Part shown: in pieces, positions 4,028 through 63,527 of the stretch | How positions within the stretch are numbered: the stretch's first letter is position 1 | How the letters are laid out: every line of letters starts with the position of its first letter | DNA from: a virus | Virus record (IMG/VR): IMGVR_UViG_3300017917_003893 | Coordinates: 32,001-96,000 of that record | Length of the DNA stretch: 64,000 nt | Reading direction: 5' to 3' (one strand) | The notes under the pieces: model-generated | What the model was told of the DNA's origin: nothing | What the model saw: only the letters and a program-made list of their open reading frames with translations | Database searches by the model: none | Position numbers and translations under genes: made by a program

Positions 4028-4582
4028 CTATTTTGATGAGTTACTTGCTATTTTCTTTATGTTATCCATCATATTTTTTTCTATATCTATCATTTTCTTT
4101 TTCAGTGATGATTCAGCATCTGATATTTCTTTTGATAAAGATGCTATTTCAGCTGTTTTAGTTGATATTCTATTAGTTATATCAGTTATTTTAGCACCAA
4201 CTGCTTGTTTAATGCTACTTTCTTTTGATAAACTTAATTCTTGTGTAAAGTCGTCTTTTTTAAGTTTATCTGTAGTTATATCTTTTTGAGTCTTATCAAC
4301 TTTCCTTTTAAGATTAGCAACATGTAAGTAGTCAACTAAAAAGGGATTTCTATCAGTTCCTGCTTTTCCAACTATCTGATCTACTTTAGCTTGTAAATCA
4401 GCATCTGTGCTTGATTTTAGATAAGCATTATCAATTAGTGGCTTTTTAGTATTAAAGTCCACAATTTGTTTTTTTAACTTAGATAACTCTTCTTTAGCCG
4501 TCCTTATATCAGGACTGTCAGTAGATTGAACGTCAAACTCAGCTTCTTCTAAGAAGAGTTTATATGACTTAATATGACCCAT
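4028..4582 (-). CDS. Coiled-coil hypothetical protein, putative virion internal protein
   Basis: 184 aa ORF; N-terminus MGHIKSYKLFLEE fits the recurrent leader motif. Confidence 0.6.
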   Translation of the reverse strand: MGHIKSYKLFLEEAEFDVQSTDSPDIRTAKEELSKLKKQIVDFNTKKPLIDNAYLKSSTDADLQAKVDQIVGKAGTDRNPFLVDYLHVANLKRKVDKTQKDITTDKLKKDDFTQELSLSKESSIKQAVGAKITDITNRISTKTAEIASLSKEISDAESSLKKKMIDIEKNMMDNIKKIASNSSK

Positions 4583-7374
4583 TACTGTTTTTTCATTTCT
4601 GTTTTAGTTATACCGTCAGTTGATGATATTTTTGGAAATCCTCCAATATTATTTATTTGATTTGATATATCTTTATTTAAAACAAACCTAGTTTTACCAG
4701 ATGTAGTTTCAACATCTTTGGTATTTTGATATAAAGTATAACAGCTTTGTATATTAACAACTTCTGGTTTTTCAGATAACGTAGCTTTTGTATTCACATT
4801 ATTTGATTTACCATCATGTTTTGTTAGATGTGTTATGTCATATCCACCACTTAATTTGAATACACCGTCTTTTCCTATTAGATTTTCTATCTTCTTTTTT
4901 GTTGCTTTCAATCTAAAGTCACTTGCTTTCTCAGTTCCCTCTCCTGATAATCTATCTTTATTTAATCTGGGTAAATCTCCTTTTTCAAGTTTATTTGATA
5001 CACCTGATTGACTAATATACTTTTCAAAGAAATAGAAAGTTCTTGAGTATACTATGTATGCTGTATCACCTACTACATCTTGTATGAAGAAGTAGTATAC
5101 TTTACCATCTTTTGTAAGTGCTGAAAAGAAAGTTTTTTTCAAATTATCATTTGATTCAAACTTTATAGGATCTTTTGTGAAAAGTAAATCAACTGTTTTT
5201 ATACTATTGGCATTGCCACTAATTTCTTCAGCTTCTTTTTCACCACCAAATGTTGTATCTTGTGATATTTTATTAGGATCTGATTCTGTATAGCCAAAAT
5301 ATTTATCTAAGAATTTTGCTTGTTGTCCCTTGTCATCTTTGCCTGTTTTATATAGTTCATCACCATCTAGCATATCTGACATAAATTTTCTAAGATTAGA
5401 TCCGGCTTTTTCTATTAGCTCATCACCAACTTTTATTTTAGTTCCAACATTAAAAATAGGTTGATACTTTTTTTCTTTCATTATATCAAGAACTGTATTT
5501 TCCCATTGATTGAATATAGCATTATTTCTATAAGGACCACCTCCTGAACCAGCATTTGCTGGTGTTCCACCTCCAAAAGAGGTATATTCCATAAATGTTT
5601 TATTTGATACTTTACCGCCTGATCTACCAGAAGGTATTACTTGAGTTGTGTGTATTTTATATGCTCTATTAAAACATTTAACTACATCTAATACAGGATC
5701 CATTCCGTTTATTACAATAGAATCTTTCTTTTCTTTCTCAAGTTTATCAAACTTTTCTTTCATTTTAATAACTTCTGTTTTCTCCATAACAAAAGCTTTA
5801 ATATCTATTTTTTTCTTCCAATAGTCTTTAATCTTTTGTGATGTAGTCATAACATCAGGTGCTCCTACTTCATCACTTTTTTCTTTATCTTCTTCAGCTT
5901 CTTTTACTAATTTAATAAAGTTATTATATCTAAACAAAGACGATTCTTTTTTAGCTACAGTGTCAACTTCTTTTTGAGTCTCTTCTTTTTTAGGCTCACT
6001 AGGAACCATTCGCATTATTTGCTTAATAGATTCAACAAAATCTTGTAAAGGTTTAGTTAAGTCACCTAAACCACCGTATAATCCTTCTTTATCAAATTGT
6101 AAAGCTCTTTTAGAAAATCTAGCTATTTTTTCTGCAACTATAATTCTTTTGTTTTTATCAGATATAATCTCAAGACTCTCTTTATATAAAGGATCTTTCT
6201 CTTGTATTGTAGATTTTTTATCTCCAACTAAATATCTGTTTATTTCTGTATAAAGAGATTTTATTTGATTTTTGGCATTTGTATCTACAGACTTAGAAGT
6301 TATGTCATTTATAAAAGCAACATCAACACCTATTCCTTTTTCTTTAGATGATATTAATACTTCAATATCTCTTTTTAATTTTGAAAAAGCTTGAGTAAGA
6401 TGGTCTTCACCAGACTTTATATTTCCTCTATCTTGAGACCCACCAGGTTGATTAGTAGTACCAGGTACTGCTTCAAATATTGAAGATTCCATAACAAGTG
6501 CTAAGCCTGCTGGTAAAGTTTGGTTGTCTTTCGGATATTTTTGAAGTATTTTAGAATTTTTTGTTCTAATATCAGCTAAAGACATTTTTTTCTTATTTAT
6601 ATTTACATCTTTCTGTATTTTTTCAATCGTATCACCTTCTTTAGTTTTATAAGGCTCAATAGATGATGATTTAGCAACTGGTGTAGATGATTGGATTTTA
6701 ACTCTTTTATAAGCGTCTAATATAATACCTAATGATTTTAGGTTTTTAATCATAACTGGATAAAGAGATTCTGATGTTTTCCCTGATTCGGATCCTTTTT
6801 CAGATCCTTCTTCGGATCCTTCTTTGCCTTCACCTTCCTCTTTATCTTTGTCGGCCTCAGATTTACCACCCTCATCATCTTTGAATTGTTCTAAGAACTT
6901 TAGAAATTCTTCTAGTTGACTTATTAAATTTTCCTTATTTTCAAAATCTTCAAAATTCTTAATATCATTTATAGCCGCTCTTGTAAGATTTTTTATCTCA
7001 CCAACATTTGCTCCTTCTTCAACCGCCTTCTGTAAACTATCAATAAATGAGAATACTATAAGTCTTCTATATTCTTTTCTATCCTCTTCTGATAACTCAG
7101 CAGCAGTTGATGTTCCTAATAGTTCGTCAAAGGTGTCTCTTAATCTTCTAGCGACTCCTTTAATTCTAACTAAGTTGGCGCCTATTTTGGCTTTTCTTAT
7201 TGTAGAGTTTATTAATCTTCCTAGTAAAGAATCACCCCAAGGTATATCATTTGCAAATGGACCACTATTTTCAACGTCTTCATTTATTGAATACAAATCA
7301 TCGTATTTTTTGTACTCGTCTATTTTACTGATACTTCTTTTAAGGAATTCTTCTCTGTTATTAAGGTATTTCAT
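4582..7374 (-). CDS. Large putative virion protein with LysM-like segment; partial paralogue of 60636..62843
   Basis: YKTKEGDTIEKI...IRTKN...LPAGLALVM is LysM-like; shared block with 60636 ORF; ATG at 7374 preferred over TTG 7395 given TAATATATA at 7398-7406. Confidence 0.6.
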   Translation of the reverse strand: MKYLNNREEFLKRSISKIDEYKKYDDLYSINEDVENSGPFANDIPWGDSLLGRLINSTIRKAKIGANLVRIKGVARRLRDTFDELLGTSTAAELSEEDRKEYRRLIVFSFIDSLQKAVEEGANVGEIKNLTRAAINDIKNFEDFENKENLISQLEEFLKFLEQFKDDEGGKSEADKDKEEGEGKEGSEEGSEKGSESGKTSESLYPVMIKNLKSLGIILDAYKRVKIQSSTPVAKSSSIEPYKTKEGDTIEKIQKDVNINKKKMSLADIRTKNSKILQKYPKDNQTLPAGLALVMESSIFEAVPGTTNQPGGSQDRGNIKSGEDHLTQAFSKLKRDIEVLISSKEKGIGVDVAFINDITSKSVDTNAKNQIKSLYTEINRYLVGDKKSTIQEKDPLYKESLEIISDKNKRIIVAEKIARFSKRALQFDKEGLYGGLGDLTKPLQDFVESIKQIMRMVPSEPKKEETQKEVDTVAKKESSLFRYNNFIKLVKEAEEDKEKSDEVGAPDVMTTSQKIKDYWKKKIDIKAFVMEKTEVIKMKEKFDKLEKEKKDSIVINGMDPVLDVVKCFNRAYKIHTTQVIPSGRSGGKVSNKTFMEYTSFGGGTPANAGSGGGPYRNNAIFNQWENTVLDIMKEKKYQPIFNVGTKIKVGDELIEKAGSNLRKFMSDMLDGDELYKTGKDDKGQQAKFLDKYFGYTESDPNKISQDTTFGGEKEAEEISGNANSIKTVDLLFTKDPIKFESNDNLKKTFFSALTKDGKVYYFFIQDVVGDTAYIVYSRTFYFFEKYISQSGVSNKLEKGDLPRLNKDRLSGEGTEKASDFRLKATKKKIENLIGKDGVFKLSGGYDITHLTKHDGKSNNVNTKATLSEKPEVVNIQSCYTLYQNTKDVETTSGKTRFVLNKDISNQINNIGGFPKISSTDGITKTEMKKQ

Positions 7375-7501
7375 GTTTTTTGAAAATTTTTTCAATTTAT
7401 ATATTAAAAATTATTAGCCAAAAATAGACTAATTAGAAATTATCCGTACATTTGTGTATGTAAATAAATAAGATAGTAAAAGTCAAAATAATAAAATAAA
7501 T

Positions 7502-7532
7502 TTTGTTATTTACGATTTTATCCTTATATTTG
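7502..7532 (+). promoter_or_regulatory. Bacteroidota-type housekeeping-sigma promoter
   Basis: TTTG (7502-7505), 19 nt spacer, TATATTTG (7525-7532) upstream of ATG 7564. Confidence 0.75.
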
Positions 7533-7563
7533 TATAACAAATCCACTACAAAAACAAAAAGAT

Positions 7564-8034
7564 ATGGCAACTCTAAACTTAAATAAAGTAATCTGTGTAA
7601 GTCTAAAGTCTCACAATGAGTCTCAACTTGATGCAATTGGTGCTACTTACAATATTAGCCTTGATTCATTAATGAAGGCAAAAAATGATGGTTGTAAGAA
7701 GTTATGGGTTCATATCGGCGGTGGTATTGTAATTGCTGGTTTAGACACAGACAACATCGATGATGTTTATTTTTCTCCAGAATATTTACCAATGACTGCT
7801 AAAGTTCGTAAAGCTATCTTAGCTATCAAGCCTGTAAAAACTCCTAAGATGCCAACTAAAACTAAAGTTAAAGTTGATAATGTAGATGTTGATAACTTTG
7901 TCGATATCACTAGCTTAATCGATGAGGCGTTTTCTAACCTTGATGTTGATGCTATTCTTGATAAGATTTCTGCTAAAGGAATGAATTCTTTGACTAAAAA
8001 AGAACTTGAATTCTTGAAAAACTCTAGTAAATAA
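7564..8034 (+). CDS. Hypothetical early protein with C-terminal DUF6576-like helix pair
   Basis: C-terminal VDAILDKISAKGMNSLTKKELEFL resembles the tail of Bacteroidota rhomboid proteins. Confidence 0.6.
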   Translation: MATLNLNKVICVSLKSHNESQLDAIGATYNISLDSLMKAKNDGCKKLWVHIGGGIVIAGLDTDNIDDVYFSPEYLPMTAKVRKAILAIKPVKTPKMPTKTKVKVDNVDVDNFVDITSLIDEAFSNLDVDAILDKISAKGMNSLTKKELEFLKNSSK

Positions 8035-8054
8035 TCATTTTTTTCCAATAACAT

Positions 8055-8083
8055 AAAAAACCGAGTCTTATCTCGGTTTTTTT
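8055..8083 (+). terminator. Intrinsic terminator
   Basis: A6-CCGAG-tcttat-CTCGG-T7. Confidence 0.8.
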
Positions 8084-8195
8084 ATTTTAAAATAAATTTA
8101 TTTTTTTAACATTCGAAATTTTTAAAAAATCCTCGATTTGATTTTTGACGTAAAAAAACTCAAATATATAAGTCATATAAATTCATATTTTTTAT

Positions 8196-8489: not shown

Positions 8490-8505
8490 AAAATAAACAA
8501 TTACT

Positions 8506-10846: not shown

Positions 10847-12982
10847 ATGGCATTTGCACCACAACAAGAGAGACAAATGGTCTTTACGACCAAGTTAGTA
10901 GATGAGGCAACTGATAAGATTAATGATGGTATTGTTATAAAACGATATCAAAATCCTTGGCTTAAAAGTGAAGTTGGTTTGAGAAGAGCTGGTGTTTCAT
11001 TTAGAATGTCGGCTGATGAACAACAAGAGTACGTTAGATGTGCTTTAGACGTTCATTACTTCGTAGAAAAATATTGCAAAGTAAAGAGAGAAGATGGTTC
11101 TGTTGGTTCTATTAAACTTAGAGATTACCAAAAGGAAATTCTGGATAATTTTGTTAATAATAGATTTAACATTCTAATGGCGTCCCGTCAGGTTGGTAAG
11201 ACAATATCATCTGCTATTTTCATGTTACATAAGATATTATTTGATAATGATAAGAATATAATGATTGTTGCTAACAAAGGTGATACCGCTGTTGAGATTG
11301 TAGATAAGATTAAGTCTATTTATACTTTACTACCTTTCTTTTTGAAGCCAGGTATTAAAACATGGAATCAAAAATCATTAACATTTGAAAACGGTTGTAG
11401 AATTAAAACATCTGCTAGAACAAAAACTCCAGCTATTGGTTTTACCATTGATGTTCTTTATCTTGATGAGTTCGCGCACATTCCTTCTAATATTATTGAG
11501 CCTTATTATACTGCGGCTTTTCCAACAACTGCGGCTGTTCAAAATTCAAAGATTATTATCACTTCCACTCCGAATGGTATGAACTTGTTTCATAGGCTTC
11601 TAACAGATGCTGAAAGACCTGAGGGTGATCCACTAAAGAACAACTATAAACCCATGAGAGTTTATTGGTATCAAGTTCCTGGTCGATTTGTTACTTACAT
11701 AAGACTTAATTCTCATAAAATGTATGAGCATGGTGTTACTAAAGAAGAAATATTTAATTTAGTTAATGATACTTGGGGTTCTCAGACTAAGGTCTTTATG
11801 GAATATAACATGGATTTACTCAAAGATGTTATTAATGTATTCAATAATGATTCTTGTACAGATGAAGATGTTAAAAAGATGACCTTTATAGATAATAAAG
11901 GATTTGAAGTCCCTATAATGGCTATAGCCGAAGTTACAACATGGAAAGAAGAGGCTATTAAAGATATTGGTGGTGAGGATGCTTTTAACCAAGAGTATGG
12001 TTTGAGATTTATTAACGCATCTAAGTCATTATTAAATGAGGCTATTATAGATGAATTATTAAAAGGTAAAAAGAACTATGTTTGGGAACAAATACCCGAA
12101 CTTGATAGAAGATTGAAGTTTAGTTATCAAGACTTGAAATGGGTAGATGATGACAATATATTTATACCTATAATGAGAAAAGATTATAAATTTGTTATAT
12201 CTGTCGATATATCTGAAGGTTTGGGTCAGGATTACTCTATCATAAATATATTTAAGATATCTGAAAAGCCAAAAGATTTAATAGAAATACAAAAGCCTTC
12301 ATATAAATCAATAGTTGACTTTTTTAGGCTTGAACAGGTTGGTATTTATAGAAACAACTACATATCTGTTAAACAATTGGCTGAGTTGCTTTATATGATT
12401 GTATTTGAATATCTAAATCCTGATAATTGTAAAGTTGTTGTTGAGTTAAATAACTATGGTAATACTCTATTTGCGGAATTACCACACGTTTTTGATGGAA
12501 ATAACAACTATGGATCTTCAGTATTTGTTAGATATAAACATAGAGCAGATGCAACTGAAGAAAAAGTAGGTCTTAAAGTAGGTGAAAATAAGAATCTAAT
12601 GGTTAAAGACTATCAAGACTTAATGCAGTCTAAAGGATTTATTATAACAAATGAAGATAATATTAGAGAAATTACAACATTTGTTAAACATACAACATCA
12701 GCAGGTAATACGAGATATGCGGCAGATGTCGGACATGATGATACTGTAATGACTATAGTTAACGCCACTACTGTTTTTGGTCGTCATGATTTTAGTGAAA
12801 TGGTTGAAGAATGGTCTTCTAAATTTGTTGATAAAGAATTTATGAACTATGTTCAAGAATCTCTTAGAAACATTGACTATGTTGAGGGTGTTGACTATGG
12901 TCAAGTTCTAAGAGTTCGTAGACAACAAATGAATAGAAATAAAGGTAAAAACTTAAATAGTGGTGGTTGGTTTAATAATTAA
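10847..12982 (+). CDS. gp17: Terminase large subunit
   Basis: LRDYQ, ASRQVGKT Walker A, LYLDEFAH Walker B, TSTPNG, nuclease VDISEGLGQDYS and GHDDTVM. Confidence 0.96.
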   Translation: MAFAPQQERQMVFTTKLVDEATDKINDGIVIKRYQNPWLKSEVGLRRAGVSFRMSADEQQEYVRCALDVHYFVEKYCKVKREDGSVGSIKLRDYQKEILDNFVNNRFNILMASRQVGKTISSAIFMLHKILFDNDKNIMIVANKGDTAVEIVDKIKSIYTLLPFFLKPGIKTWNQKSLTFENGCRIKTSARTKTPAIGFTIDVLYLDEFAHIPSNIIEPYYTAAFPTTAAVQNSKIIITSTPNGMNLFHRLLTDAERPEGDPLKNNYKPMRVYWYQVPGRFVTYIRLNSHKMYEHGVTKEEIFNLVNDTWGSQTKVFMEYNMDLLKDVINVFNNDSCTDEDVKKMTFIDNKGFEVPIMAIAEVTTWKEEAIKDIGGEDAFNQEYGLRFINASKSLLNEAIIDELLKGKKNYVWEQIPELDRRLKFSYQDLKWVDDDNIFIPIMRKDYKFVISVDISEGLGQDYSIINIFKISEKPKDLIEIQKPSYKSIVDFFRLEQVGIYRNNYISVKQLAELLYMIVFEYLNPDNCKVVVELNNYGNTLFAELPHVFDGNNNYGSSVFVRYKHRADATEEKVGLKVGENKNLMVKDYQDLMQSKGFIITNEDNIREITTFVKHTTSAGNTRYAADVGHDDTVMTIVNATTVFGRHDFSEMVEEWSSKFVDKEFMNYVQESLRNIDYVEGVDYGQVLRVRRQQMNRNKGKNLNSGGWFNN

Positions 12983-13263
12983 CCATTTGCTTCCATAGTA
13001 GCACTTAGACCAGCACTTCTTAGTTTGTCTTTCATTGTTGAAATAGTATCTAAATCACCATATTTTACATCACATTTTCCGCTAAAATGTACAATATGAG
13101 CACACTGAGTAGCTTGTTCTTCTTCGTGTTTACAGATTTTCATCAAACATGTTATTACCCAATCAAAAGTATTATGATCGTCATTGTGTAGAACAAGTTT
13201 GTATGGTTTAGATAGTATTTCTTCTACTTTTGAAGATGTTTTCTTTTTAGTAATTGTTGCCAT
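12979..13263 (-). CDS. clpS: ATP-dependent Clp protease adaptor ClpS
   Basis: LVLHNDDHNTFDWV...QCAHIVHFSGKC signature. Confidence 0.9.
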   Translation of the reverse strand: MATITKKKTSSKVEEILSKPYKLVLHNDDHNTFDWVITCLMKICKHEEEQATQCAHIVHFSGKCDVKYGDLDTISTMKDKLRSAGLSATMEANG

Positions 13264-14895: not shown

Positions 14896-15504
14896 ATGAA
14901 GCATATTAGAACATTTGAATCATATCGTGTTAAGAAAAACAGAGAAGAGATAATTAAAGAATCTGTTCTTCAGGTAAACGATATCTACAAAGTAAAGACT
15001 ATGATTGATATTCCTCAGTCATTGATTAACGCTTATGTTAAAAAAGTAAAAGACACAACTGGTAAAAACTTACGTCAATTTTTTGGTGATGTTGACATCG
15101 CTGAAGAAATTGTTAAGTATATCAATATGAATAATCTTGATGTTGAAAAGATTCCTGGTGGTGCTTTAATGGGTGGTGGTCAATCACAGGCTCAAACACA
15201 ACCTCAAGCTCAGCCTCAAGTTCAAGTTGAAGGTGAGACTCAAGCTCAAACACAAGCTCAAACACAAGAAGCTCCTCAAGCTCAACCTCAAGCTCAAACA
15301 CAAGAAGCTCCTCAAGCTCAGGCTCAAACACAAGAAGCTCCTCAAGGAGAATTTGAAGAACCACAAGCTCAAGCTCAAACACAAGAAGCTCCTCAAGCTC
15401 AAGGACAAGCTCAAACACAAGAAGCTCCACAAGCACAAGGTCAAGGTCAGGCTCAAGAAGAGGAAGAAGAAACTGAAGAAGGAGAAGAAGAATTACCGCT
15501 TTAA
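14896..15504 (+). CDS. Putative virion protein with Q/A/T/P low-complexity tail
   Basis: MKHIRTFESY leader; late motif at 14862-14870. Confidence 0.65.
   Translation: MKHIRTFESYRVKKNREEIIKESVLQVNDIYKVKTMIDIPQSLINAYVKKVKDTTGKNLRQFFGDVDIAEEIVKYINMNNLDVEKIPGGALMGGGQSQAQTQPQAQPQVQVEGETQAQTQAQTQEAPQAQPQAQTQEAPQAQAQTQEAPQGEFEEPQAQAQTQEAPQAQGQAQTQEAPQAQGQGQAQEEEEETEEGEEELPL
15180..15460 (+). repeat. Imperfect coding tandem repeat (QAQTQEAPQA)
   Basis: Repeated caagctcaaacacaagaagctcct units. Confidence 0.85.
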
Positions 15505-15558: not shown

Positions 15559-15574
15559 ATTTAATATATAGTTT

Positions 15575-16186
15575 ATGAGATTCCTTAAAACGTTTGAAAG
15601 TTATGGTAATGAAACATTAATTATTGTTGATGTTCAAAAGTCATTCAAGAAATTCTTTTCGGAAATGTATTTGAATGAGTTGAAAAAGTATTGTAATAAC
15701 TTCCAAAGTGTTTACCAAATATGGGATAACCATATCGATGGTAAAAAAGTGGATAAAGATTATCTATATGATAATACACCAGAGATTCCAATTCATGATG
15801 ACCTTTATCATTTTCCTAATCAAAAAGACTTGATTGAGAAGAGATATAACTATGATGTTGATGCTGATTTTTATAAAAAGATATTAAGTAAAGAAGTTTA
15901 TAAAGAAATTAGTGATAAGGAAGATAAAAAAGAACTTAAAAAAGGCGATATTTTCTCTACTAAAGAAGGTACAATAATAACTTACATTGGTAATAACCAC
16001 GTTTGGTTTCACGTTCCTATCAAATTGTATGAACTATTACAATCATTAAAAGGTAAAGAAGTTACAATAGTTGGTGGTGCTGACTCTGAATGTCTTGAAG
16101 ATATAGTAACAACCGCTGAGAAATTAGGTGTTAAAATTAAAAGAGATTATAAATATATTTATACTGCTAGTAGTTGTCCAATTTAA
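15575..16186 (+). CDS. Isochorismatase/nicotinamidase-like cysteine hydrolase
   Basis: LIIVDVQ and VTIVGGADSECL motifs. Confidence 0.65.
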   Translation: MRFLKTFESYGNETLIIVDVQKSFKKFFSEMYLNELKKYCNNFQSVYQIWDNHIDGKKVDKDYLYDNTPEIPIHDDLYHFPNQKDLIEKRYNYDVDADFYKKILSKEVYKEISDKEDKKELKKGDIFSTKEGTIITYIGNNHVWFHVPIKLYELLQSLKGKEVTIVGGADSECLEDIVTTAEKLGVKIKRDYKYIYTASSCPI

Positions 16187-16680
16187 CCTTCATCAGGCAT
16201 ATCAAAACAAATTCTTAAAACATCTCCGTCAAATCCAATTGAACATTGTTCAAAATTAGAAAAAACTTGAAACCTTGGAACAATTTCTTCTTGGAGTAAT
16301 TTAAATATTTTCTTAATTTTATTATTATTAGCCATAATAATATCTAAATTGTTTCTTAACTTTTCTAGATTTTCAATCTGATTATCAACTGAATAGTTTA
16401 ATGAAGTATAATATGATTCTATATTTTCTGGACCATCTGTTGGTGGTAAAGCATCTGTTAAATATCTAGCAGTTAAGTATGTTCCTTCTTCATCAATCTC
16501 TTCATCACTTATTTGAGGTATTGTTAATTCGCAGTCATAGAAATAATCTTCATCTGTATAATCATGAAATACACATTGGAAATAATCAGATAATTCCATC
16601 ATAATTTCTTTGAATGTCTCAAAATCACATTCTTCATTTGAAGCCTCATTGAACTTCTTTAGATATACTAACTTTTTCAT
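16183..16680 (-). CDS. Hypothetical acidic protein
   Basis: Coupled to upstream ORF by ATGA overlap; leader YLKKFNE. Confidence 0.6.
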   Translation of the reverse strand: MKKLVYLKKFNEASNEECDFETFKEIMMELSDYFQCVFHDYTDEDYFYDCELTIPQISDEEIDEEGTYLTARYLTDALPPTDGPENIESYYTSLNYSVDNQIENLEKLRNNLDIIMANNNKIKKIFKLLQEEIVPRFQVFSNFEQCSIGFDGDVLRICFDMPDEG

Positions 16681-17768
16681 ATATTACTTATAAATTTATA
16701 TAATTTTTTTATATATTCTCTTCTTTTATATTCTGGATTTGTCATACAATAAACAACAAAAGCAAAATATTTAACTTTTTCTATAAGAACCTCTCTTTCA
16801 ATTATACCACCAGCATATCTAAATTCGCAATAGTTATCAGAAAGCTTTGTTATATTAAATCCAAGATTTTTAAATCCTATTTGATTTACCTTCTTTGTTA
16901 AGAAGCTATTTAATACCTCTTCGGATTCTTCAAGATTATTAATATCAAGTCCTTTGATTATATTTTTTTCTTTATCACTCATTTCTTTAAGATATGGTAT
17001 TAATGATCCGCAAAACTTGTTATTCATTCTCCAAGTCATATCTTTGAATGTGTATGGTGTTGAATCTTTATCAGAAAAGTCATTTAATATTAACAATCCT
17101 TTAATTGGATTCCATTTAACCTTTTGATTGGAACCTAGATTTATATGTATTCCAGTTCTTTCTGAAAAGTGCCAGTAATCCTGTTTTTCTAAATCATTGT
17201 AGAAGTCATTTATCATTTCAATAGATTCTGATAAACTAGGTATATAAGTCTTTGGTTTTATTTCAATTCCTCTTTCAAGAGTTGCATCTCCAACAAAGTC
17301 AATCTTTCTATTCCATTTTCTAACAAAATTAGGCATATGTGTTCTTACCATTCTTTTTAGATATGTATAGTCTTCTTCTATAATAACTGATTTTAATGAG
17401 TTTTTCAAATGAGATACTATTTCTATTTGTCTCTCATCTGTATATTTGCTTATGTCAAATATTCTATCAAATGTGTTTTCATTGACATTTTTAGATTCCA
17501 CTTCATCATATAATGAATATGCTAGATTGAATATTAATTCCTTCTCTGATTTCTTTCTAATTTTAAAGTCTTTAGTTACTGTTTCTAAAACATCTTCAAT
17601 AGTTTCTTCATCTAAATCTTTGTATTTATACTTTAGATTACCTTTGTCTAATGTTTCTATTTCAAACTCAAATGCCACTGTAAAGTAGTTATTTAATTCA
17701 GATTCTATGAATGCTATATCTCTTGGGTTAACCTCTTCAAATAGAGAAAATTTTACTAAGTATCTCAT
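16677..17768 (-). CDS. Putative amidoligase (COOH-NH2 ligase, GS-like fold)
   Basis: FEFEIE, DATL..GIEI, TGIHINL, CEFRYAGG motifs. Confidence 0.7.
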   Translation of the reverse strand: MRYLVKFSLFEEVNPRDIAFIESELNNYFTVAFEFEIETLDKGNLKYKYKDLDEETIEDVLETVTKDFKIRKKSEKELIFNLAYSLYDEVESKNVNENTFDRIFDISKYTDERQIEIVSHLKNSLKSVIIEEDYTYLKRMVRTHMPNFVRKWNRKIDFVGDATLERGIEIKPKTYIPSLSESIEMINDFYNDLEKQDYWHFSERTGIHINLGSNQKVKWNPIKGLLILNDFSDKDSTPYTFKDMTWRMNNKFCGSLIPYLKEMSDKEKNIIKGLDINNLEESEEVLNSFLTKKVNQIGFKNLGFNITKLSDNYCEFRYAGGIIEREVLIEKVKYFAFVVYCMTNPEYKRREYIKKLYKFISNI

Positions 17769-21953: not shown

Positions 21954-22319
21954 ATGTATTTAAATAATAAAGACCTGTATGTTGAAATTATAGTTTCTAA
22001 AGCACAGGGAAAACTAACAAGAAATGCCGAAAAAATGTTGGAGTTATTGGCTAAAAAAACAATCAAAAAAATGAGGTATTGGTCAAATGATGATAAACTT
22101 GATTGTTATCAATCCGGACTTCTTGATATGTTTCAAAATTGGTATAACTTTAACGAAGATAAATCTGTAAATGCTTTTGCTTATTTTACTGAAGTCTTCA
22201 AAAGAGGAATAGCTAAAGGTTATAATGAACTGTATAAAAAGAAAGGTGATAATGAACATCAAATTAGATTAATTTCAATTGAAGGTTCTAATGATGGACA
22301 AGGATTACACTCTTTATAA
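21954..22319 (+). CDS. gp55: Late-transcription sigma factor (gp55-like)
   Basis: YLNNKDL and NFNEDKSVNAFAYFT match T4-like gp55 motifs. Confidence 0.8.
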   Translation: MYLNNKDLYVEIIVSKAQGKLTRNAEKMLELLAKKTIKKMRYWSNDDKLDCYQSGLLDMFQNWYNFNEDKSVNAFAYFTEVFKRGIAKGYNELYKKKGDNEHQIRLISIEGSNDGQGLHSL

Positions 22320-22387: not shown

Positions 22388-23476
22388 TTATGCTTCTGTT
22401 GATACTTCAACTTCACTGTATACTGTTTTAAGCATTCTAAGTGCAACTTGATAAGGGTTGCAATTTGAAGCCGGTCTTCTATCCTCAAAATATCCTTTTC
22501 CTTCAACGATTGCCTGAGCTGGAATTCTTATAGAAGTATCTCTTGTGCTATATCCAAAACTAAACTCGTGAATTCCTGATGTTTCGTGAGCACCTGTTAA
22601 TCTTTGTTCATTATGAAGACCATAAACTTCTATGTGTTTCATATGATTCTTTTCCAATTTAGCCATAGTTTCTTTAATTAAATCAAGACCACCTTCTTCT
22701 CTCATCTCTTTTGATGAAAAATTAACATGACATCCTGTTCCATTCCAGTCACCTTTGATTGGTTTTGGGTGTAGAGAAACGTTTACATTATGTTTTTCAG
22801 CAACTCTATCTAGAATATATCTTGAAATCCATAATTGGTCAGAACCTTCTAAAGCAGTTACTGGTCCAATTTGATATTCCCATTGACCTAATAGAACTTC
22901 AGCGTTAATTCCTGAAATATCTAAACCTATTTCCATACACATATTCATATGCTCTTCAACTATTTCACGTCCAACAACTGTGTCGGCTCCAATTCCACAA
23001 TAGTAATCTCCCTGAGCTCTAGGTGTTTTGTCTATTTGAAATCCTAAAGGTAAACCAATTCCTTCGCCAAATGGCATATGTGGTTTATGAGTTAGAGTAT
23101 ATTCTTGTTCCCATCCAAACCAAGGAAGACTATTTTTGTCACCTTTCTCATCTAGTTTCAATTCATTTAGTTTATTAACTAATGATCTTCTATGATTTGT
23201 TTTATGTGGTGTTCCATCTGGGTTAAGAACTTCACAAAAAACTAATCTATTTGGAAATCCTCTGAATGGATCAGTTACTACAAAAACAGGATTCAAAAGA
23301 CAATCTGTGTTTTTTCCTTTACCAGCTTCAGCCTGTAAAGTTGAACTTCCATCAAATGACCATATTGGATAACTATCTGGGTCATTGGAGTGAATCTCTT
23401 TTGCTATTTTAGTTTTACTTCTTAATCTTTGTGGATTTGATCCATCAAGCCAAATGTACTCTAATTTAATATTCAT
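22388..23476 (-). CDS. glnII: Glutamine synthetase type II
   Basis: EYIWLDG, WSFDGSST, EQEY, NAEV..GQWEYQ, DWNGTGCH, RLTGAHET, YFEDRRPASN. Confidence 0.95.
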   Translation of the reverse strand: MNIKLEYIWLDGSNPQRLRSKTKIAKEIHSNDPDSYPIWSFDGSSTLQAEAGKGKNTDCLLNPVFVVTDPFRGFPNRLVFCEVLNPDGTPHKTNHRRSLVNKLNELKLDEKGDKNSLPWFGWEQEYTLTHKPHMPFGEGIGLPLGFQIDKTPRAQGDYYCGIGADTVVGREIVEEHMNMCMEIGLDISGINAEVLLGQWEYQIGPVTALEGSDQLWISRYILDRVAEKHNVNVSLHPKPIKGDWNGTGCHVNFSSKEMREEGGLDLIKETMAKLEKNHMKHIEVYGLHNEQRLTGAHETSGIHEFSFGYSTRDTSIRIPAQAIVEGKGYFEDRRPASNCNPYQVALRMLKTVYSEVEVSTEA

Positions 23477-25487: not shown

Positions 25488-25961
25488 ATGAGACATTTAA
25501 GAAAATTTGAAGAACTTGACTATTCAACATATATGAGTGCTGCTGATAAGATGGCATCTTATGGTCAAACATCTAAAGCTGAAGAGGTTAGAAAACACGC
25601 TCTTTCTATGGCTAGAAGAGTAATTGATGATATGAATTTTGGAATTTTAGTCGGTGGTGTTAGAACTTTTCCTAATGCTAAATTTGAAAATGCTAGAATA
25701 TTTAAATCTGGTAATGCTTGGTCACTTCAAGTAATACTTAAATCTGATGAAAATACACACAGTGTTAACTGTAAAGTTTTAGAGAATGGTGAGATTTCTT
25801 GGGCTGATGGAAATAAGTTTATGGATAGAGGTTCTGTTCTTAAATTTCAACAATTAGTTAAACAACTTGCTAAATTTCAACCAGACTTTTTAGCATTTAT
25901 AAAGGATAATAACTTAACACCTGAAGATCTTAAAGTTGTTTTAAGAACTTTTTATAATTAA
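25488..25961 (+). CDS. Hypothetical, putative virion internal protein
   Basis: MRHLRKFEE leader; late motif at 25454-25462. Confidence 0.6.
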   Translation: MRHLRKFEELDYSTYMSAADKMASYGQTSKAEEVRKHALSMARRVIDDMNFGILVGGVRTFPNAKFENARIFKSGNAWSLQVILKSDENTHSVNCKVLENGEISWADGNKFMDRGSVLKFQQLVKQLAKFQPDFLAFIKDNNLTPEDLKVVLRTFYN

Positions 25962-26062
25962 TTATCTGTAAAAAACCTATCTTCTTTACTAGCTTGACTT
26001 TTGGTTAATTATGGAGGAAGATGCGTTTTTTAATATATAATCTAAATACTAATTAAAAATAA

Positions 26063-52121: not shown

Positions 52122-53222
52122 ATGAGAATTAGAAGAAAGTTTCTACAACTTACACGGTATACATATCCTTATGGTACCGAATCATTCCTTAAATCATACT
52201 TACCTGAAGGTATTAAAAAAGACCAATATGGTAACTATTACTATGTTATTGGTGATAAACCAACAACAATGTTTACCTGTCACTTAGATACGGCTTGTGG
52301 TAAACAAGATAAGGTTAAACACGTTATTAATAATAACATAATTAAGACAGATGGTAAAACTATACTTGGTGCTGATGATAAGGCAGGTATGGTTGTTTTG
52401 CTTTATATGATTGAAAATAAAATACCTGGACTATATTATTTCTTTATTGGTGAAGAAGTTGGTTGTATAGGTTCTGGTAATTTATCATCTACTTGGGCTG
52501 ATACTGAATTTAGTTATTATGTATCAAAAGTTGTTTCATTTGACAGAAGAAGTACTTGTTCTGTTATCACTCATCAATGGTATGGTCGTTGTTGCTCTAA
52601 TGAATTTGCTGAAGAATTGTCAAGTAGACTAAATGGTGCTGGTTTTAATCTTAAATTAAAGCCAGATGATACTGGTGTTCTAACAGATTCTGCTCAATTT
52701 ATGGATATTGTTCCAGAGTGTACAAATATATCAGTTGGTTACAATTATGAACACACAACATCTGAATATCAAGATATTGATTATTTAAGTAGACTATGTA
52801 AGTCAGTGTGTTTAATTGACTGGGAAACACTTCCTGTTGAAAGAGATCCCTATGAAGAATCTATTTTTAGTGATTCACCAGGTTGGGATGATGATATTAA
52901 TCACTCAAATGATTCTGAATTTGTAGAAGATTTCTATTCTTATTTTTCAGTAGATGGTGAGACTAAAAAGATGTATATTTCCAAGGATGTGATTACTAAA
53001 GAAATTGAATTAATTACTGATTGGCTCAAATCACAAGATGGATATAGTGATGTTTCAACTATTAACTGGAATGGAAATACTCTTTATGTCGATAGTGAGT
53101 CCGGTGGTTATAATTTTATAGGTAGTCGAACTGATATTATGGAGTTTATTACTGAATTATGTTCAGTTTCCAATTCAAAAGTAACTGATAAAATTAAGAC
53201 CAAGAAGAATATGGTTTTTTAA
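52122..53222 (+). CDS. M28/M20-family metallopeptidase, paralogue of 35127
   Basis: CHLDT, GADDKAG, GEEVG, SFDRR, LTDS, YEHT. Confidence 0.85.
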   Translation: MRIRRKFLQLTRYTYPYGTESFLKSYLPEGIKKDQYGNYYYVIGDKPTTMFTCHLDTACGKQDKVKHVINNNIIKTDGKTILGADDKAGMVVLLYMIENKIPGLYYFFIGEEVGCIGSGNLSSTWADTEFSYYVSKVVSFDRRSTCSVITHQWYGRCCSNEFAEELSSRLNGAGFNLKLKPDDTGVLTDSAQFMDIVPECTNISVGYNYEHTTSEYQDIDYLSRLCKSVCLIDWETLPVERDPYEESIFSDSPGWDDDINHSNDSEFVEDFYSYFSVDGETKKMYISKDVITKEIELITDWLKSQDGYSDVSTINWNGNTLYVDSESGGYNFIGSRTDIMEFITELCSVSNSKVTDKIKTKKNMVF

Positions 53223-58120: not shown

Positions 58121-58678
58121 ATGAGATATTTAAAAACTTATGAATCATTTTCAACAAACGAAGAGTTCTTAGGTGGACTTTGGAATAAAATTACCGCTGC
58201 GTTTGCTAATTGGAAAAATGAAAAAATGAAAAAAGCTGGTGAGACACTAGCTAAATCAATCGAAGAAAAAAAGGATGATCCTAAAATGCAAAAGGCTCTA
58301 GCTGACTTAAAGGTAGCTTATGATAAATTAGCTCCAGAAGATAAGGCTAAAGTTCAATCATTTAAAGATGAAAAAAATATTCCAGTAGAAACTGAAGTAA
58401 ATGCTGAAGAAGAAGTTATGGCTGAATCTTTACTTTTAGAAGAAGAAGGTATGGTAGCTAAAATTATCTCTTACCTAGGATTTACAGCAGGTGCTGCTTC
58501 ATTTGTTAGTCTAATTGTAACAGTTATTCAAATCGCTATGGCTGGTTCTGGTTATCCAACTACTTTATTTGGATTATCATTGGGTACTTTTGGTGCTATC
58601 TGTATGGTTGCTGTATTAGTATTTGGTGTTGGTGGAGCTATTGCTCAGTCTGTTGACCAAGGTGAATTTTCAAAATAA
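58121..58678 (+). CDS. Putative virion internal protein with two C-terminal TM helices
   Basis: MRYLKTYESF leader; hydrophobic hairpin; late motif at 58085-58093. Confidence 0.65.
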   Translation: MRYLKTYESFSTNEEFLGGLWNKITAAFANWKNEKMKKAGETLAKSIEEKKDDPKMQKALADLKVAYDKLAPEDKAKVQSFKDEKNIPVETEVNAEEEVMAESLLLEEEGMVAKIISYLGFTAGAASFVSLIVTVIQIAMAGSGYPTTLFGLSLGTFGAICMVAVLVFGVGGAIAQSVDQGEFSK

Positions 58679-58939: not shown

Positions 58940-58966
58940 ATGTGTAGTGATTAATTTTATATTGAA

Positions 58967-58997: not shown

Positions 58998-59055
58998 ATA
59001 AAATAACTTTTTTCTAAAAAATATCTATAACTCATGTAAAAATAAATATGAATAG

Positions 59056-60582
59056 ATGTTAGTTGAAACACAATATTTAACAAATAGTAAGAAATTAGTA
59101 GTTAGTTACGTTGATAAAACCGGTGATATAAAGCTTAAATATTATAATTGGGATAATCCAATGAAGTATGTTGCTTGTGAGGACAACGATCCTCAAAGAC
59201 ACCCTGAATTTAGATCTTGGGATGGTAAATCAGTTAAACAAGTTGAAGTTAATCAACCTGATAGATATGCTATCTATGAATTCTTAGATGGCTTACCAGA
59301 ATCTGAAAAAAATGAAATATTTGAATTTAATCTACCTAAGATTTACTTTATAGATATCGAGACTGAAATCGTTGATGGTTTCCCTGAGGCGGCTGATGTT
59401 AAAGACCAAGATGGTAATATAACTAAAGAAGGAGCTTCAACACAAGTTCTTTCTATCTCTATTGTTTATGATGATAAAATCATTCTACTTGGTTTGAAAG
59501 AAATGCCTCAAGATATGCAGGATAGAATTATTACAAATACTAATAAGTATTTTGAGAAGTTCGGAACTGAATACAAGTTTAAGTATATTAAGTATGATGA
59601 TGAGTTTGATATGCTTTATGCTTTCTTCTATAAGATGATTCCTAAGATGCCAATTTTAACTGGTTGGAACTTCTTACAATATGACTGGTTGTATTTAGTA
59701 AATCGTTCTAGAAAGATTTCTAAGTGGGTAAATGGTAGAGAGTATAGAATTGATCCTGCTGTTTCATCTTTAACAAAAAGAATGAATAAGATTTGGTCAA
59801 CAGACTTTGAAGTTCCAGCACATAGAATGATTTTTGACTATATGCAACTTTATGAAATCTGTGATACTTCTATCAAAGTAAAAGAATCTTCATCATTAGA
59901 CTTCGTATCTAATAAATTAGTTGGTGTTGAAAAGATTAAGTATAATGGATCTTTACAAAAGTTATATGAAGATGATTTTGAGACATTTATGTACTATAAC
60001 GCAGTCGATAGTGTTCTTGTTCAAAAGATACACGATGCTCGTAACTACATTTCAATTATCTATGCGATTTCATCACTTGCTCAGATTAGAATCATTGACG
60101 TTGTTTCTCAAATGAATAATGCGTTAGGTTCCTTGGCTATTACAGAAGGTGTTTTAAGAAACAGATTTCGTAAGATGGACAATATTGTTCTATTCCGAGA
60201 TGAGCGAGGAGATGCAGAATCTACAATTGCAGGTGGTTGGGTAAAAGACCCTGTAGTTGGTATGAATCAGTGGTGTGTTACTTATGACTTTGCTTCACTT
60301 TATCCAACAACACAAAGACAATTCTTTATAGCACCTGAAACTTTTGTAGGTGTTCAAGATGAAAAAGATAAGTCTAAATGTACAAATGGTAGACCTATTG
60401 ATTTAGATAAACATGTTTTATGTGTAAATGGTGTAGTATTTGAAAAAAGAAAGTCACCAACGCTTAATATGCTTGAGGATGTTTATGCTGATAGAAAAAA
60501 AGCAAAGAAAGTGATGATGCAAAAGAAAGAAGACTTAAAAAAAGTTCTTGATGAGATTAAACAATTAGAGGCAGAAATATAA
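59056..60582 (+). CDS. gp43: Family B DNA polymerase, N-terminal subunit of a split enzyme
   Basis: ExoI DIETE, ExoII TGWNFLQYD, ExoIII YNAVD, motif A YDFASLYP; ends after RKKAK without motifs B and C. Confidence 0.88.
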   Translation: MLVETQYLTNSKKLVVSYVDKTGDIKLKYYNWDNPMKYVACEDNDPQRHPEFRSWDGKSVKQVEVNQPDRYAIYEFLDGLPESEKNEIFEFNLPKIYFIDIETEIVDGFPEAADVKDQDGNITKEGASTQVLSISIVYDDKIILLGLKEMPQDMQDRIITNTNKYFEKFGTEYKFKYIKYDDEFDMLYAFFYKMIPKMPILTGWNFLQYDWLYLVNRSRKISKWVNGREYRIDPAVSSLTKRMNKIWSTDFEVPAHRMIFDYMQLYEICDTSIKVKESSSLDFVSNKLVGVEKIKYNGSLQKLYEDDFETFMYYNAVDSVLVQKIHDARNYISIIYAISSLAQIRIIDVVSQMNNALGSLAITEGVLRNRFRKMDNIVLFRDERGDAESTIAGGWVKDPVVGMNQWCVTYDFASLYPTTQRQFFIAPETFVGVQDEKDKSKCTNGRPIDLDKHVLCVNGVVFEKRKSPTLNMLEDVYADRKKAKKVMMQKKEDLKKVLDEIKQLEAEI

Positions 60583-60635
60583 TTTCTGTCTTTTTTATTT
60601 TAATATATATTGTTGTAAAAAAATATCTTCTTCTA

Positions 60636-62843
60636 ATGAAAATTGAAAAATACTCAGATTTCAACAATCAAAATATATCCGAAGAAATAGATTGGGAAAA
60701 TATAAAATATAAACTAGGTAAACTAGGATCTATTACTAAAGGTGGTAAATTTTTTGGTAGAAAAAAACAAGATGCTAAGGCTAAAGAGGAAATTGAAGCC
60801 TTACTTAAAGATGCTAATAATAAATTTATTAGCGATATGGATAAAAAACTAAAAGAGGTAGCACCTGAGTTTCCAAACAATAAAAGTAGAGACCAGTTCT
60901 TAGAAGCACTTTCAATAATTTCAGCTACATATGACTCAATAATTCAAGCTTGTCATAAAACATACGAAATACACGCATACTCAAGTAGTCGTGAAGATTT
61001 AAAAGATGAAGATAATAAAGGTTTTTTGAAAACAGATAAAGATGGTAATATAATTACCACTCTTAAACCAGGTGATGAGAATTATATGACAATTGAAATG
61101 GCTAATGCTTTAATTCAGTCATTACAAAAATATATGAAAAAACTAATAGACTATGATTTATCAACATCTTACACAGTTTTTGAAAAAAATACTATAACAG
61201 AAGAAGAAGCTGAATATTTAATTAATAAGTTAAATGAAGAGATATCATTAAATCCTTTTAATTGGTTTAAAAAGAAACAAGAATCACCTGCTCTTACTTC
61301 AGGTACTGATACGGCTACTAAAAAAATGGTACACTCTACTAAATATGAAAAGATATTTGGTGGTTTAGGTGTTGCTTTAGGTGTATTTGGTTGGGTTGTT
61401 CAAACAGAATGGTTTAGAACAATGATGGAGTCTTGGTTGAATAAACCAGAAATAACAAAAGATGTTATAAGTAAAGATATTAAAAATATAGGAATGGAAG
61501 TTAAAGATGGTGAAGGTTTAACTCAGGCACTTAACAGAACATTAGGTACAGATTTTAATAAGAATACACCCGTTTCAGAATTTGTTAGTACTCTTAGAGA
61601 TAAGGGATTTGGTAATAATCCTACTGAGATATTTAATAATTTAGGTATTGATTCTTTATCACCAAATGCTAATTTTAATGCAGATGCTGTTACAGCTTTA
61701 AGTGGTGGTGGTAATTTACAAAATGCTTTTTCAGGAATTTTTCACGGTAGAGGTGGTACTTTATTGGCTCTTAATCCAGGGGAATTTTTAGCAAAACAAA
61801 TAACAACACAAGTAACAAAGGTTGTTGTTCAACAAGCTGTTAAAGTAGGAACAACTATTGCTACTGGTTTAGCGGCAGCAGGTCCTTTTATTACTGGTTT
61901 AGGTATAGCTATGGTTGCTGGTGCTATAACATCTTGGTTGTTAAAAAGAAAGGCTAAGAAATCTTCTAGATATAAAGACTTACAAGAACTTTTAGAGAAA
62001 TTCAAGCTAATTGAGTTACAACAAGGTTATAGAAAGAGTCCTATTAAATATGAAGATGGTGAAGAGTTTACACCAATTGGTAATGATGAAACTGGTGGTA
62101 CTGTTGAGTCATCTGGTGTTAGTGAGAAGTCAATTTATTCTTTAATGATTAAAAACTTAACTCAGTTAAGAAGTTTAATTAGCACTTCAGAAGGTGTTAG
62201 ATTAGAAGGCGAAAAAGACTCAATTAAAGGTGCTGAACTTGGAAAATCAAAAAGACAAAAAGAAGTATCTAAAAGAAGAGTTAATAAACCAGCACTTGCT
62301 GAAAATTTAATATTAAGATATAATGATTTGATAACTGAGGAAGATAGATTTGGTCAGCAACGTAATGTTGAGATAATGAAGACTGAAGAATATTTAACTC
62401 AAGCTTTCACTAATATTAGAAAGTCTTTAAAGTCATTAAAAGATGAAAAAGATAAAGGTATTGGAGTTACATATGATTTCATAGGTGATATTCTTGATAA
62501 GAAAATGGATTCTGGCACAAAAGAACCAATTAAGAACTTATATTCTGAAATATATGATTATCTATATGGTTCTAAATCTAAAACTGTAAGTGATTTAGGA
62601 GCTTTATATAAAGAAAGTGTTGAAGTTATTTCTAATAAGGCTAAAAGACAAGTTGTTGCTGAAAAAATAGCTAGATTCTCAAAAAGATCTTTACAGTTTG
62701 AAGGTGAAGGTTTTTATGGTGGTATGGGTCAGTTTGGATCAGACTTACAGGATTTTAATAAATCACTTAAAGATATAATGAATTACTTTAAAGAAAATAG
62801 TCAAGTAAAAGAATCTAAAATACAAAGATTCAAAGATATGTAA
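60636..62843 (+). CDS. Large putative virion/ejection protein with hydrophobic segments
   Basis: MKIEKYSDF leader; TM-like GGLGVALGVFGWVV and GLGIAMVAGAITSWLL; paralogous block with 4582 ORF. Confidence 0.6.
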   Translation: MKIEKYSDFNNQNISEEIDWENIKYKLGKLGSITKGGKFFGRKKQDAKAKEEIEALLKDANNKFISDMDKKLKEVAPEFPNNKSRDQFLEALSIISATYDSIIQACHKTYEIHAYSSSREDLKDEDNKGFLKTDKDGNIITTLKPGDENYMTIEMANALIQSLQKYMKKLIDYDLSTSYTVFEKNTITEEEAEYLINKLNEEISLNPFNWFKKKQESPALTSGTDTATKKMVHSTKYEKIFGGLGVALGVFGWVVQTEWFRTMMESWLNKPEITKDVISKDIKNIGMEVKDGEGLTQALNRTLGTDFNKNTPVSEFVSTLRDKGFGNNPTEIFNNLGIDSLSPNANFNADAVTALSGGGNLQNAFSGIFHGRGGTLLALNPGEFLAKQITTQVTKVVVQQAVKVGTTIATGLAAAGPFITGLGIAMVAGAITSWLLKRKAKKSSRYKDLQELLEKFKLIELQQGYRKSPIKYEDGEEFTPIGNDETGGTVESSGVSEKSIYSLMIKNLTQLRSLISTSEGVRLEGEKDSIKGAELGKSKRQKEVSKRRVNKPALAENLILRYNDLITEEDRFGQQRNVEIMKTEEYLTQAFTNIRKSLKSLKDEKDKGIGVTYDFIGDILDKKMDSGTKEPIKNLYSEIYDYLYGSKSKTVSDLGALYKESVEVISNKAKRQVVAEKIARFSKRSLQFEGEGFYGGMGQFGSDLQDFNKSLKDIMNYFKENSQVKESKIQRFKDM

Positions 62844-62849
62844 AAAAAG

Positions 62850-62878
62850 AAAACCTCTGATAAATCAGAGGTTTTTTT
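62850..62878. terminator. Bidirectional terminator
   Basis: AAAACCTCTGA-taaa-TCAGAGGTTTT. Confidence 0.8.
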
Positions 62879-63527
62879 AATTTATTTTAATAGGTTCCCA
62901 AATTACTTCAGGCATTTTTTCTTTAACAACTTTAGTTGCTCTTTTTAGATATTTTGGATTATCATCATAAAAAATAGCTTTTTTGAAACCGGTTTCTTTT
63001 AATATTTCAACTATTTTTTCACCTTTCCAAATTCCCAAATTTCTTGAACCTTTAGGTGCCATATGTAATCCATATTTAGGTAGTTTTAGTCCTAGTTGTA
63101 ATAATCTATCAACTATTTTACCTCTTATAGTTTCTTCTCTTGCTGTAACAATACATTTATTTTCAACTGATTTGTATAAGTCTGATACTTCTTTTAATGT
63201 ATTAGGTAAGCTTATGTTTGATGTGTGAAATAAATTAGGTGTTGTTAAATACATTCTATCACCTTTTCTAACCCAGTTTCCGAACTCTTTAATTTGTTTA
63301 TTTGGATCTGGTATATAAATTCTATTATCCTGCCATTTTAAGTCATTTAATGATACGCCAATTCTATTAACTGATTGTATCAATAGGTCTTTAATAGTTA
63401 CATCTTCTTTTAAATATTGAATAGCTAGTTCTTCAAATGATGGTGAATTTACAAGTGTGTCATCAAAATCAAATACATGAAGCGTTTCTTCATCACTTGT
63501 AAATTCATTATAGGTTTTAATTTTCAT
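62877..63527 (-). CDS. HAD-superfamily phosphatase
   Basis: FDFDDTL, IVTAR, KG, FYDDN; ATG gives MKIKTYNEF. Confidence 0.75.
   Translation of the reverse strand: MKIKTYNEFTSDEETLHVFDFDDTLVNSPSFEELAIQYLKEDVTIKDLLIQSVNRIGVSLNDLKWQDNRIYIPDPNKQIKEFGNWVRKGDRMYLTTPNLFHTSNISLPNTLKEVSDLYKSVENKCIVTAREETIRGKIVDRLLQLGLKLPKYGLHMAPKGSRNLGIWKGEKIVEILKETGFKKAIFYDDNPKYLKRATKVVKEKMPEVIWEPIKIN

Follow-up and report, generated by a model that had tools for sequence, protein, structure and literature searches.

An N-terminal tag resembling the capsid-targeting sequence of T4 on many unrelated proteins of a megaphage of the T4 superfamily

The window studied here, a stretch of 64 kb, corresponds to bases 32001-96000 of the 143-kb viral contig IMGVR_UViG_3300017917_003893 (29.5% GC, estimated to be about 25% complete), which is a fragment of a megaphage of the T4 superfamily. 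Our subject is a short N-terminal tag that recurs on many proteins encoded in this window and that resembles the capsid-targeting sequence (CTS) of the internal proteins of phage T4. The original prediction, made from the letters of the window, had listed 13 unrelated open reading frames (ORFs) starting with M-[KR]-x-[LI]-[KR]-x-[FY]-x-x-[FY] or a close variant. All 13 N-termini are indeed there, and 11 of them are robust leaders, by which we mean a score of at least 7 with a position-specific scoring matrix (PSSM) or a match to a broad T4-like pattern; the matrix was built iteratively from 16 N-termini of this contig only, and calibrated on pseudo-N-termini starting at internal methionines. 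The N-terminus of the ORF starting at 7374 is weak but conserved, and the one at 35127 is doubtful.

Two of these genes belong to the tail sheath operon. One (4028-4582, -) encodes a protein of 184 residues with a leader of the form aromatic-x-x-aromatic-L-x-E (broad pattern, PSSM 4.3; residues differ in the orthologue, but the pattern is still there), and the other, the first gene of the operon (4582-7374, -), encodes a protein of 930 residues with the weak variant (PSSM 2.2), a promoter-like octamer, AATATATA, 23 nucleotides upstream, and a start pattern, M-K-Y-L...E-[FY]-L-K, that is conserved in LR745206, a complete relative of 635 kb. Then come a gene for a protein of 202 residues with an acidic C-terminal tail (14896-15504, +; PSSM 21.3, possibly as a member of the training set; leader kept by the orthologue), which has a weak SSB-like PHROG match (phrog_6015, E 3e-5), and a gene for an isochorismatase/nicotinamidase-like cysteine hydrolase of 203 residues (15575-16186, +), with the leader in residues 1-11 and the fold from residue 12. 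Proteins of 165 residues (16183-16680, -; PSSM 26.3, leader kept by the orthologue), 363 residues (16677-17768, -; PSSM 22.3), 157 residues (25488-25961, +; PSSM 23.3, AATATATA 25 nucleotides upstream) and 185 residues (58121-58678, +; PSSM 23.6, AATATATA 27 nucleotides upstream) are tagged as well. So are an NFACT-R protein of 129 residues encoded directly after the major capsid protein (MCP) gene (34703-35092, +), in which a leader of the broad pattern, kept by the orthologue, precedes a domain beginning near residue 17, and an acidic protein of 151 residues (36533-36988, +; PSSM 24.5), whose orthologue keeps a leader followed by about 30 residues that cannot be aligned. At the far end of the window are a protein of 735 residues (60636-62843, +; PSSM 8.6), which shares a domain with the 930-residue protein of the sheath operon (BLAST E 5e-36 over 143 residues), and a HAD-like protein of 216 residues (62877-63527, -; PSSM 21.8), with a 14-residue leader, nearly identical in its core to the T4 CTS, and then a DxDxT strand, at which the untagged HAD paralogues of the same genome begin directly. 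The gene for the 735-residue protein comes after a DNA polymerase ORF (59056-60582) that aligns with positions 109-504 of the 856 in the family profile, its N-terminal half only, and this polymerase may be split into parts.

The doubtful leader is that of an M28/M20-like peptidase of 468 residues (35127-36533, +; phrog_4191, E 2e-64): its PSSM score is 1.1, its orthologue has no tag, its paralogues are leaderless, and it has an extra N-terminal region of 143 residues. The family to which it belongs (52122-53222, 35127-36533 and four LR745206 paralogues) counts at least 5-6 paralogues per genome, and only the copy after the capsid gene has the extra region.

The functions that had been proposed for the tagged proteins of the window mostly stand, with unequal support. 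NFACT-R is firm (PF05670, E 9e-17, residues 24-119), and the cysteine hydrolase is supported by matches to the nicotinamidase/isochorismatase fold and by an invariant D19-K89-C173 triad. The amidoligase (the 363-residue protein) is a lead only, as the atlas neighbours of this protein are Amidoligase_2 clusters, at 0.94-0.95, and a Pfam search gave no match; the HAD phosphatase rests on its motif and on weak Pfam HAD/DUF2608 matches; the M28-like peptidase, with a weak Pfam M28 match and a tag that is not conserved, is the weakest of all. Most tagged proteins had no match in Pfam searches, and about 20 of the 136 in LR745206 have a Pfam family. Those that can be named there are Acb1, T4-type RNA ligase 1, a CCA/polyA-polymerase head domain, a 2H phosphoesterase, NUDIX, RNase T and DHH proteins, together with a MazE-like protein, a nucleotidyl cyclase, GH108 and GH16 hydrolases, ClpP and an M50 peptidase.

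The set of tagged proteins is larger than the 13 first listed. The strict pattern given above occurs at 7 of the 163 N-termini of the contig; its frequency inside proteins would predict 0.06 such cases, and shuffling of the N-termini 0.1. With the PSSM at a threshold of 7, 21 of the 163 genes are found and none expected, a result that is partly by construction since this is the training contig; in LR745206, which is independent of the training set, the figure is 84 of 904 genes, with 2.2 expected. With the looser T4-like pattern included, about 33 of the 163 genes and about 137 of the 904, respectively, count as tagged, which puts the tag on 10-20% of the proteins, and further cases are hidden by miscalled start codons. 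The consensus, M-[KR]-[YH]-[LI]-[KR]-[KT]-[FY]-[EN]-[ES]-F, extends over about 10-14 residues, with a looser form, aromatic-x-x-aromatic-[IL]-x-E; in the matrix, no columns are stronger or more conserved than those of the two aromatics (i and i+3), and a sizeable share of the tags goes on with [IL]-x-E after them. A glutamate is present within residues 6-16 in 98% of the tags, [LIVMF]-x-E in 70% and [LI]-x-E in 40%. As had been claimed, BLAST shows no relationship among the tagged proteins, except for two cases in which a domain is shared locally, and a single paralogous family is rejected because these proteins do not match each other. Their genes are dispersed across the whole genome of LR745206 and also form cassettes (46 adjacent pairs, 20.5 expected). 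On the other hand, the similar strings that had been seen at the ends of the ORFs 9321, 17812 and 60636 score -9.2, 5.6 and -5.2, no better than chance, and we no longer count them. We also rejected the idea that tagged proteins are polyproteins jointed at [LIV]-N-E, since this motif is not enriched inside them (ratio 0.7-1.0).

The leaders had also been described as sitting behind a AATATATA-type motif, directly or within an operon, and this is correct: 10 of the 13 have AATATATA within 30 nucleotides, and the others lie in an operon or have a close variant. Among upstream 8-mers, none is more enriched than AATATATA, which stands before 48 of the 163 genes of the contig and has 59 copies there, 31 of them in the window (where 15.4 would be expected). 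One copy, at 15563-15570 (+), ends 4 nucleotides before the ATG of the cysteine hydrolase gene. In the contig it is found at most 30 nucleotides upstream of 67% of the leader genes, compared with 23% of the remaining genes (p 9e-5); the figures for LR745206 are 43% of the tagged genes and 16% of the others (p 5e-8). The octamer lies ahead of the portal, TerL, protease-MCP and sheath operons, and is not found upstream of the genes for DNA polymerase, thymidylate synthase, methyltransferase and clamp loader, while a host-type motif, TAnnTTTG, is depleted before tagged genes. Since AATATATA is common to the structural operons, and a gp55-like late sigma factor is encoded in the window (21954-22319, +; phrog_234, E 1e-6), this suggests, indirectly, that the tagged genes may be expressed late. 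Either 4-6 or 17-29 nucleotides separate AATATATA from the ATG, a bimodal distribution (for example, 15563-15570, 34691-34698 and 26032-26039), and the short spacing implies near-leaderless late mRNAs.

Such mRNAs bring in a first alternative, namely that the tag has no function as a peptide and reflects AT-rich codon bias, a preference for certain codons after the start, or the translation of near-leaderless late messengers. It is true that K, F, Y, I, N and E have AT-rich codons, that many tagged genes have the promoter motif 4-6 nucleotides before the ATG, and that the tag is somewhat commoner in this class (43% versus 28%). However, shuffled N-termini and internal methionines gave about 0-2 matches, to be compared with the 21-84 seen; the synonymous codon usage of the tags is that of untagged N-termini, the aliphatic column being encoded by six codons (TTA, CTA, CTT, TTG, ATT and ATA); the tag is present with both promoter spacings; and 62 tagged genes with no promoter of their own are contiguous with the gene before them or overlap it, and are thus internal to operons. 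Equally AT-rich phages do not have the tag either: it is found in 2 of 302 genes of Tenacibaculum phage PTm1 (30% GC, same head module), with 1.2 expected, and in none of 388 in the AT-rich Lak-B1, which has a portal, protease-scaffold and capsid module of T4 type. Cyanophage Syn19 and Agrobacterium phage Atu_ph07 gave no tagged gene, and these results were borne out when over-represented N-terminal patterns were sought de novo. Because of the codon usage, the AT-rich controls, and the presence of the tag with both spacings and on operon-internal genes, we conclude that the shared N-terminus is a selected peptide, and not an RNA or translation signal or a matter of composition; the controls largely refute the non-functional alternative, which we now hold to be extremely improbable.

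Some observations on the control phages can be reported here. Since PTm1 lacks the tag, the annotation of its virion proteins could not be used as a substitute for proteomics. Syn19 (GU071106) has near 150377 (+) a single ORF of 386 residues with the CTS-like start M-K-K-F-S-A-F-L-N-E-A, which may be a lone cargo of the internal-protein type. In Lak-B1 (MK250020), 6-7 N-termini share a different motif, around L-E-S-L-F-D-D (0.3-0.5 expected), which may be this clade's own tag.

The tag is modular as well as conserved. Orthologues keep its pattern while individual residues change and the adjacent linker diverges. Among homologues of the cysteine hydrolase, 33 have nothing ahead of the first domain strand, 73 have an extension of 9-25 residues, mostly tag-like, and 10 have a long unrelated N-terminal region, most of these still with a tag-like start. 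In an AlphaFold2 model of the protein of the window (pLDDT, the model's own per-residue confidence, 87.6), the fold begins at residue 12 and residues 1-10 come out disordered (pLDDT 47), so that in the model the tag is a disordered module outside the fold.

How specific is the likeness to T4? We read the T4 sequences from NC_000866 and scored 409 ORFs with the matrix trained on the megaphage. The internal proteins IPI, IPII and IPIII score 10.8-11.2, and rank second, fourth and fifth; this level is reached by about 0.03% of control positions. Mutagenesis of the T4 CTS has assigned targeting to residues 4 and 7, the two aromatics, and processing to residues 8 and 10, that is, I-x-E (PMC9026906). 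The conserved columns of the megaphage tag coincide with these determinants. In T4 the CTS is carried by IPI, IPII and IPIII, with short propeptides also on Alt and gp24, and is removed by gp21; like it, the megaphage tag is located at the extreme N-terminus of unrelated proteins (the T4 peptides have 10-19 residues), and it has a K-T-[YF]-x-E-F core with aromatics at i and i+3 followed by a glutamate. The likeness to the T4 CTS that had been proposed is therefore real and specific, given the T4 scan, the gp21-type protease described below, the association with a late-type promoter and the modularity of the tag. The same scan drew our attention to T4 gp61.1 (L044, NC_000866 18966-19130), a hypothetical protein of 54 residues encoded beside the primase gene, with a CTS-like start ending in I-K-E and a score of 11.1, level with the internal proteins.

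The head machinery of T4 has its counterparts in the window: a gp21-family protease, a gp20-type portal protein (26063-27781, +; Pfam Portal_T4, E 1.5e-57) and a gp23-type MCP (32950-34623, +), the propeptide of which contains a conserved I41-N42-E43, a candidate maturation site; as in T4, tagged genes occur in cassettes. The protease forms residues 1 to about 170 of a protein (30725-32869, +; phrog_207, E 8e-33) with a scaffold-like C-terminal part. Its Pfam S77 score (20.5 bits) is below the cut-off of 27, and a phmmer search of the protease domain against solved structures gave no gp21 match; nevertheless, tblastn finds annotated gp21 proteins with E down to 6e-23, alignment with the T4 gp21 ORF places H73/S128/D150 opposite T4 H85/S140/D168, and the domain groups with gp21/S77 and not with S80. 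After the protease domain there is an L-N-E site where T4 gp21 has I-T-E. Unlike in T4, where gp22 is the scaffold, the scaffold is here fused to the protease, and it carries the tag motif in a tandem array of about 13 repeats of 14 residues (31499-32074, +; 42-nucleotide period, residues 259-450 or so). Each repeat contains aromatic-x-x-aromatic-[IL]-A-E, with Y/E/Y/A/E columns that are invariant in 39 homologues. This motif occurs 11 times in the protease-scaffold and 33 times within the first 16 residues of 1,067 proteins, and elsewhere only 48 times in 213,303 internal positions. The maturation site of T4 gp23 is a unit of the same kind, and [ILF]-x-E followed by S, N, A or G is found in leaders, in the MCP propeptide, at the protease/scaffold junction and in every scaffold repeat. 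The number of scaffold units (11 in the contig, 11 in LR745206, 14 in LR756501, 2 in LR756500, none in Lak-B1 and PTm1) parallels the expansion of the tag. Homologues of the protease-scaffold are abundant (4,731), and one of them (P0173) is encoded on a contig of 816,658 bases, which is longer than the 735-kb record among the relatives. A C-terminal peptide of the type R-x-x-K-I-x-x-[IL]-[LF] ends many proteins, as in the window between 39773 and 56734; in LR745206, near 460435, an 83-residue protein is made up of free scaffold repeats and then this peptide.

The records closest to the contig are genomes of uncultured megaphages, 462-735 kb long, and its MCP is 73% identical to that of LR745206, 54% to that of LR756501 and 35% to that of LR756500; PTm1, the Lak phages and T4-like cyanophages are more remote. 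The tail sheath (16-3966) and the large terminase (10847-12982) are further T4-superfamily parts, and the enrichment of TAnnTTTG upstream of genes points to a host among the Bacteroidota. The window also encodes an untagged glutamine-synthetase-like protein (22388-23476, -; Gln-synt_C, E 9e-18), and in LR745206 short ORFs near 291407 and 207176 match only residues 8-173 and 334-527 of the MCP.

We think that the most satisfactory interpretation, and one that we hold to be moderately likely, is that the tag is a T4-type capsid-targeting and processing tag which has expanded hugely, from 3-4 proteins to roughly a hundred, and that many proteins, already made, probably travel with the DNA of this phage. 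Tagged proteins would be made late, from AATATATA promoters; through the two aromatics of the tag they would join the prohead core, which the gp21-type protease-scaffold fusion builds; and the protease would trim the tag after a glutamate, leaving the cargo in the head with the DNA. Because the scaffold repeats carry the tag motif, the tag could serve the protease as an extended recognition element, or else imitate a single repeat of the scaffold. We infer from sequences all of these steps, from binding to the core and cleavage after glutamate to packaging and ejection. A more elaborate version, which we consider rather unlikely, makes of the repeats a multivalent loading rack, in which each CTS-like unit would pair with the tag of one cargo and present the same cut site, the number of repeats setting the load of a starter proteome of more than 100 proteins. 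Tied to this same version, and as tentative, is the suggestion that the starter proteome includes RNA-repair and anti-defence enzymes (Acb1, RNA ligase, CCA-adding enzyme, NUDIX and an antitoxin-like protein).

Since the motif is present in the scaffold repeats and at the cleavage site of T4 gp23, it may also simply mark substrates. The tag would then be a propeptide recognised by the prohead protease or the core and nothing else, and its carriers would be transient components of the core or inner body, or zymogens, rather than injected effectors. The cargo is acidic, as scaffolds are, unlike the basic internal proteins of T4, and in phiKZ and SPN3US many head proteins are processed that are not all ejected (PMC5694885). 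Many tagged enzymes, however, fold fully without the tag (the cysteine hydrolase, NFACT-R, RNA ligase, Acb1 and NUDIX proteins) and have no obvious role in head building, and the same signal does deliver cargo in T4; we find it unlikely that the tag is only a propeptide.

Another possibility is that the tag is an N-terminal signal of a different nature: a Clp degron, an amphipathic helix that binds membranes, or the recognition site of a modifying enzyme. The tag pattern is amphipathic, the window encodes a ClpS-like adaptor (12979-13263, -; phrog_27368, E 2e-9), and LR745206 encodes a tagged ClpP. Methionine aminopeptidase leaves the initiator methionine in place before K or R, and as residue 2 of the tag is K or R, the methionine would be retained and no N-end-rule residue exposed. 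No modifying enzyme is linked to the tagged genes, which are dispersed; a link with radical-SAM enzymes in particular was rejected, there being no PF04055 match in the contig and only one in the 635 kb of LR745206. Such a signal would also leave the match to the T4 internal proteins and to the scaffold motif unexplained, and it seems to us quite unlikely.

Returning to a T4-type targeting tag, several observations weigh against it. A tag on 10-15% of the genes, genome-wide, is far above any known packaged set. The cargo is acidic (median isoelectric point 4.9, 5.5 for the other proteins; 74% below 6) and includes some proteins that seem out of place in a capsid, for example ClpP and an M50 membrane peptidase. 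The main leader type, K-T-F-E-S-Y, mostly lacks a canonical [LI]-x-E site, so that many tags may be targeted but uncut, or cut by another rule. Intermediate T4-like phages have no tag, and the likeness to T4 could be convergent. Finally, the correlation with the repeat number is based on six related genomes that are not phylogenetically independent. The system would in any case differ from that of T4 on several points: about 100 or more tagged proteins instead of 3-4; acidic cargo of up to 735 residues in the window, with large enzymes, instead of small basic DNA-associated proteins; and, in most tags, extra residues (Y/H-L/I-K/R) before the core.

It is useful to compare this tag with other systems. 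In phiKZ, 201phi2-1 and SPN3US, propeptides of head and ejection proteins are cut by S80 proteases (gp175/gp245) after [SAG]-x-E (PMC5694885). These are also giant phages with many head-internal proteins cut after glutamate by a gp21-related protease, and their propeptides are thought to be involved in targeting; but these are mostly longer than 100 residues and paralogue-specific, without a short consensus, on some 8-19 processed proteins, and the protease family and cleavage motif differ, whereas the megaphage tag has about 10-14 residues and the domain begins at residue 12-17. Encapsulins offer another parallel, a short terminal cargo-loading peptide directing diverse enzymes into an HK97-fold shell. 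That peptide, however, is C-terminal and binds the shell itself, with no protease and no DNA, in a bacterial compartment and not in a virion. Among the papers that we searched, none links a CTS to jumbo, huge or megaphages.

The aromatic-x-x-aromatic-[IL]-x-E unit common to the tag, the scaffold repeat and the capsid propeptide provides a testable model for the recognition of a CTS; the natural variants of the tag may also be of use for loading proteins into T4-type capsids. If the tag works as in T4, the packaged, and probably injected, proteome of uncultivated megaphages would become readable from their sequence alone. A tenth or more of the genes would then be invested in proteins whose action precedes all expression of phage genes, and this would change our view of the coding capacity of megaphages and of their strategy of counter-defence.

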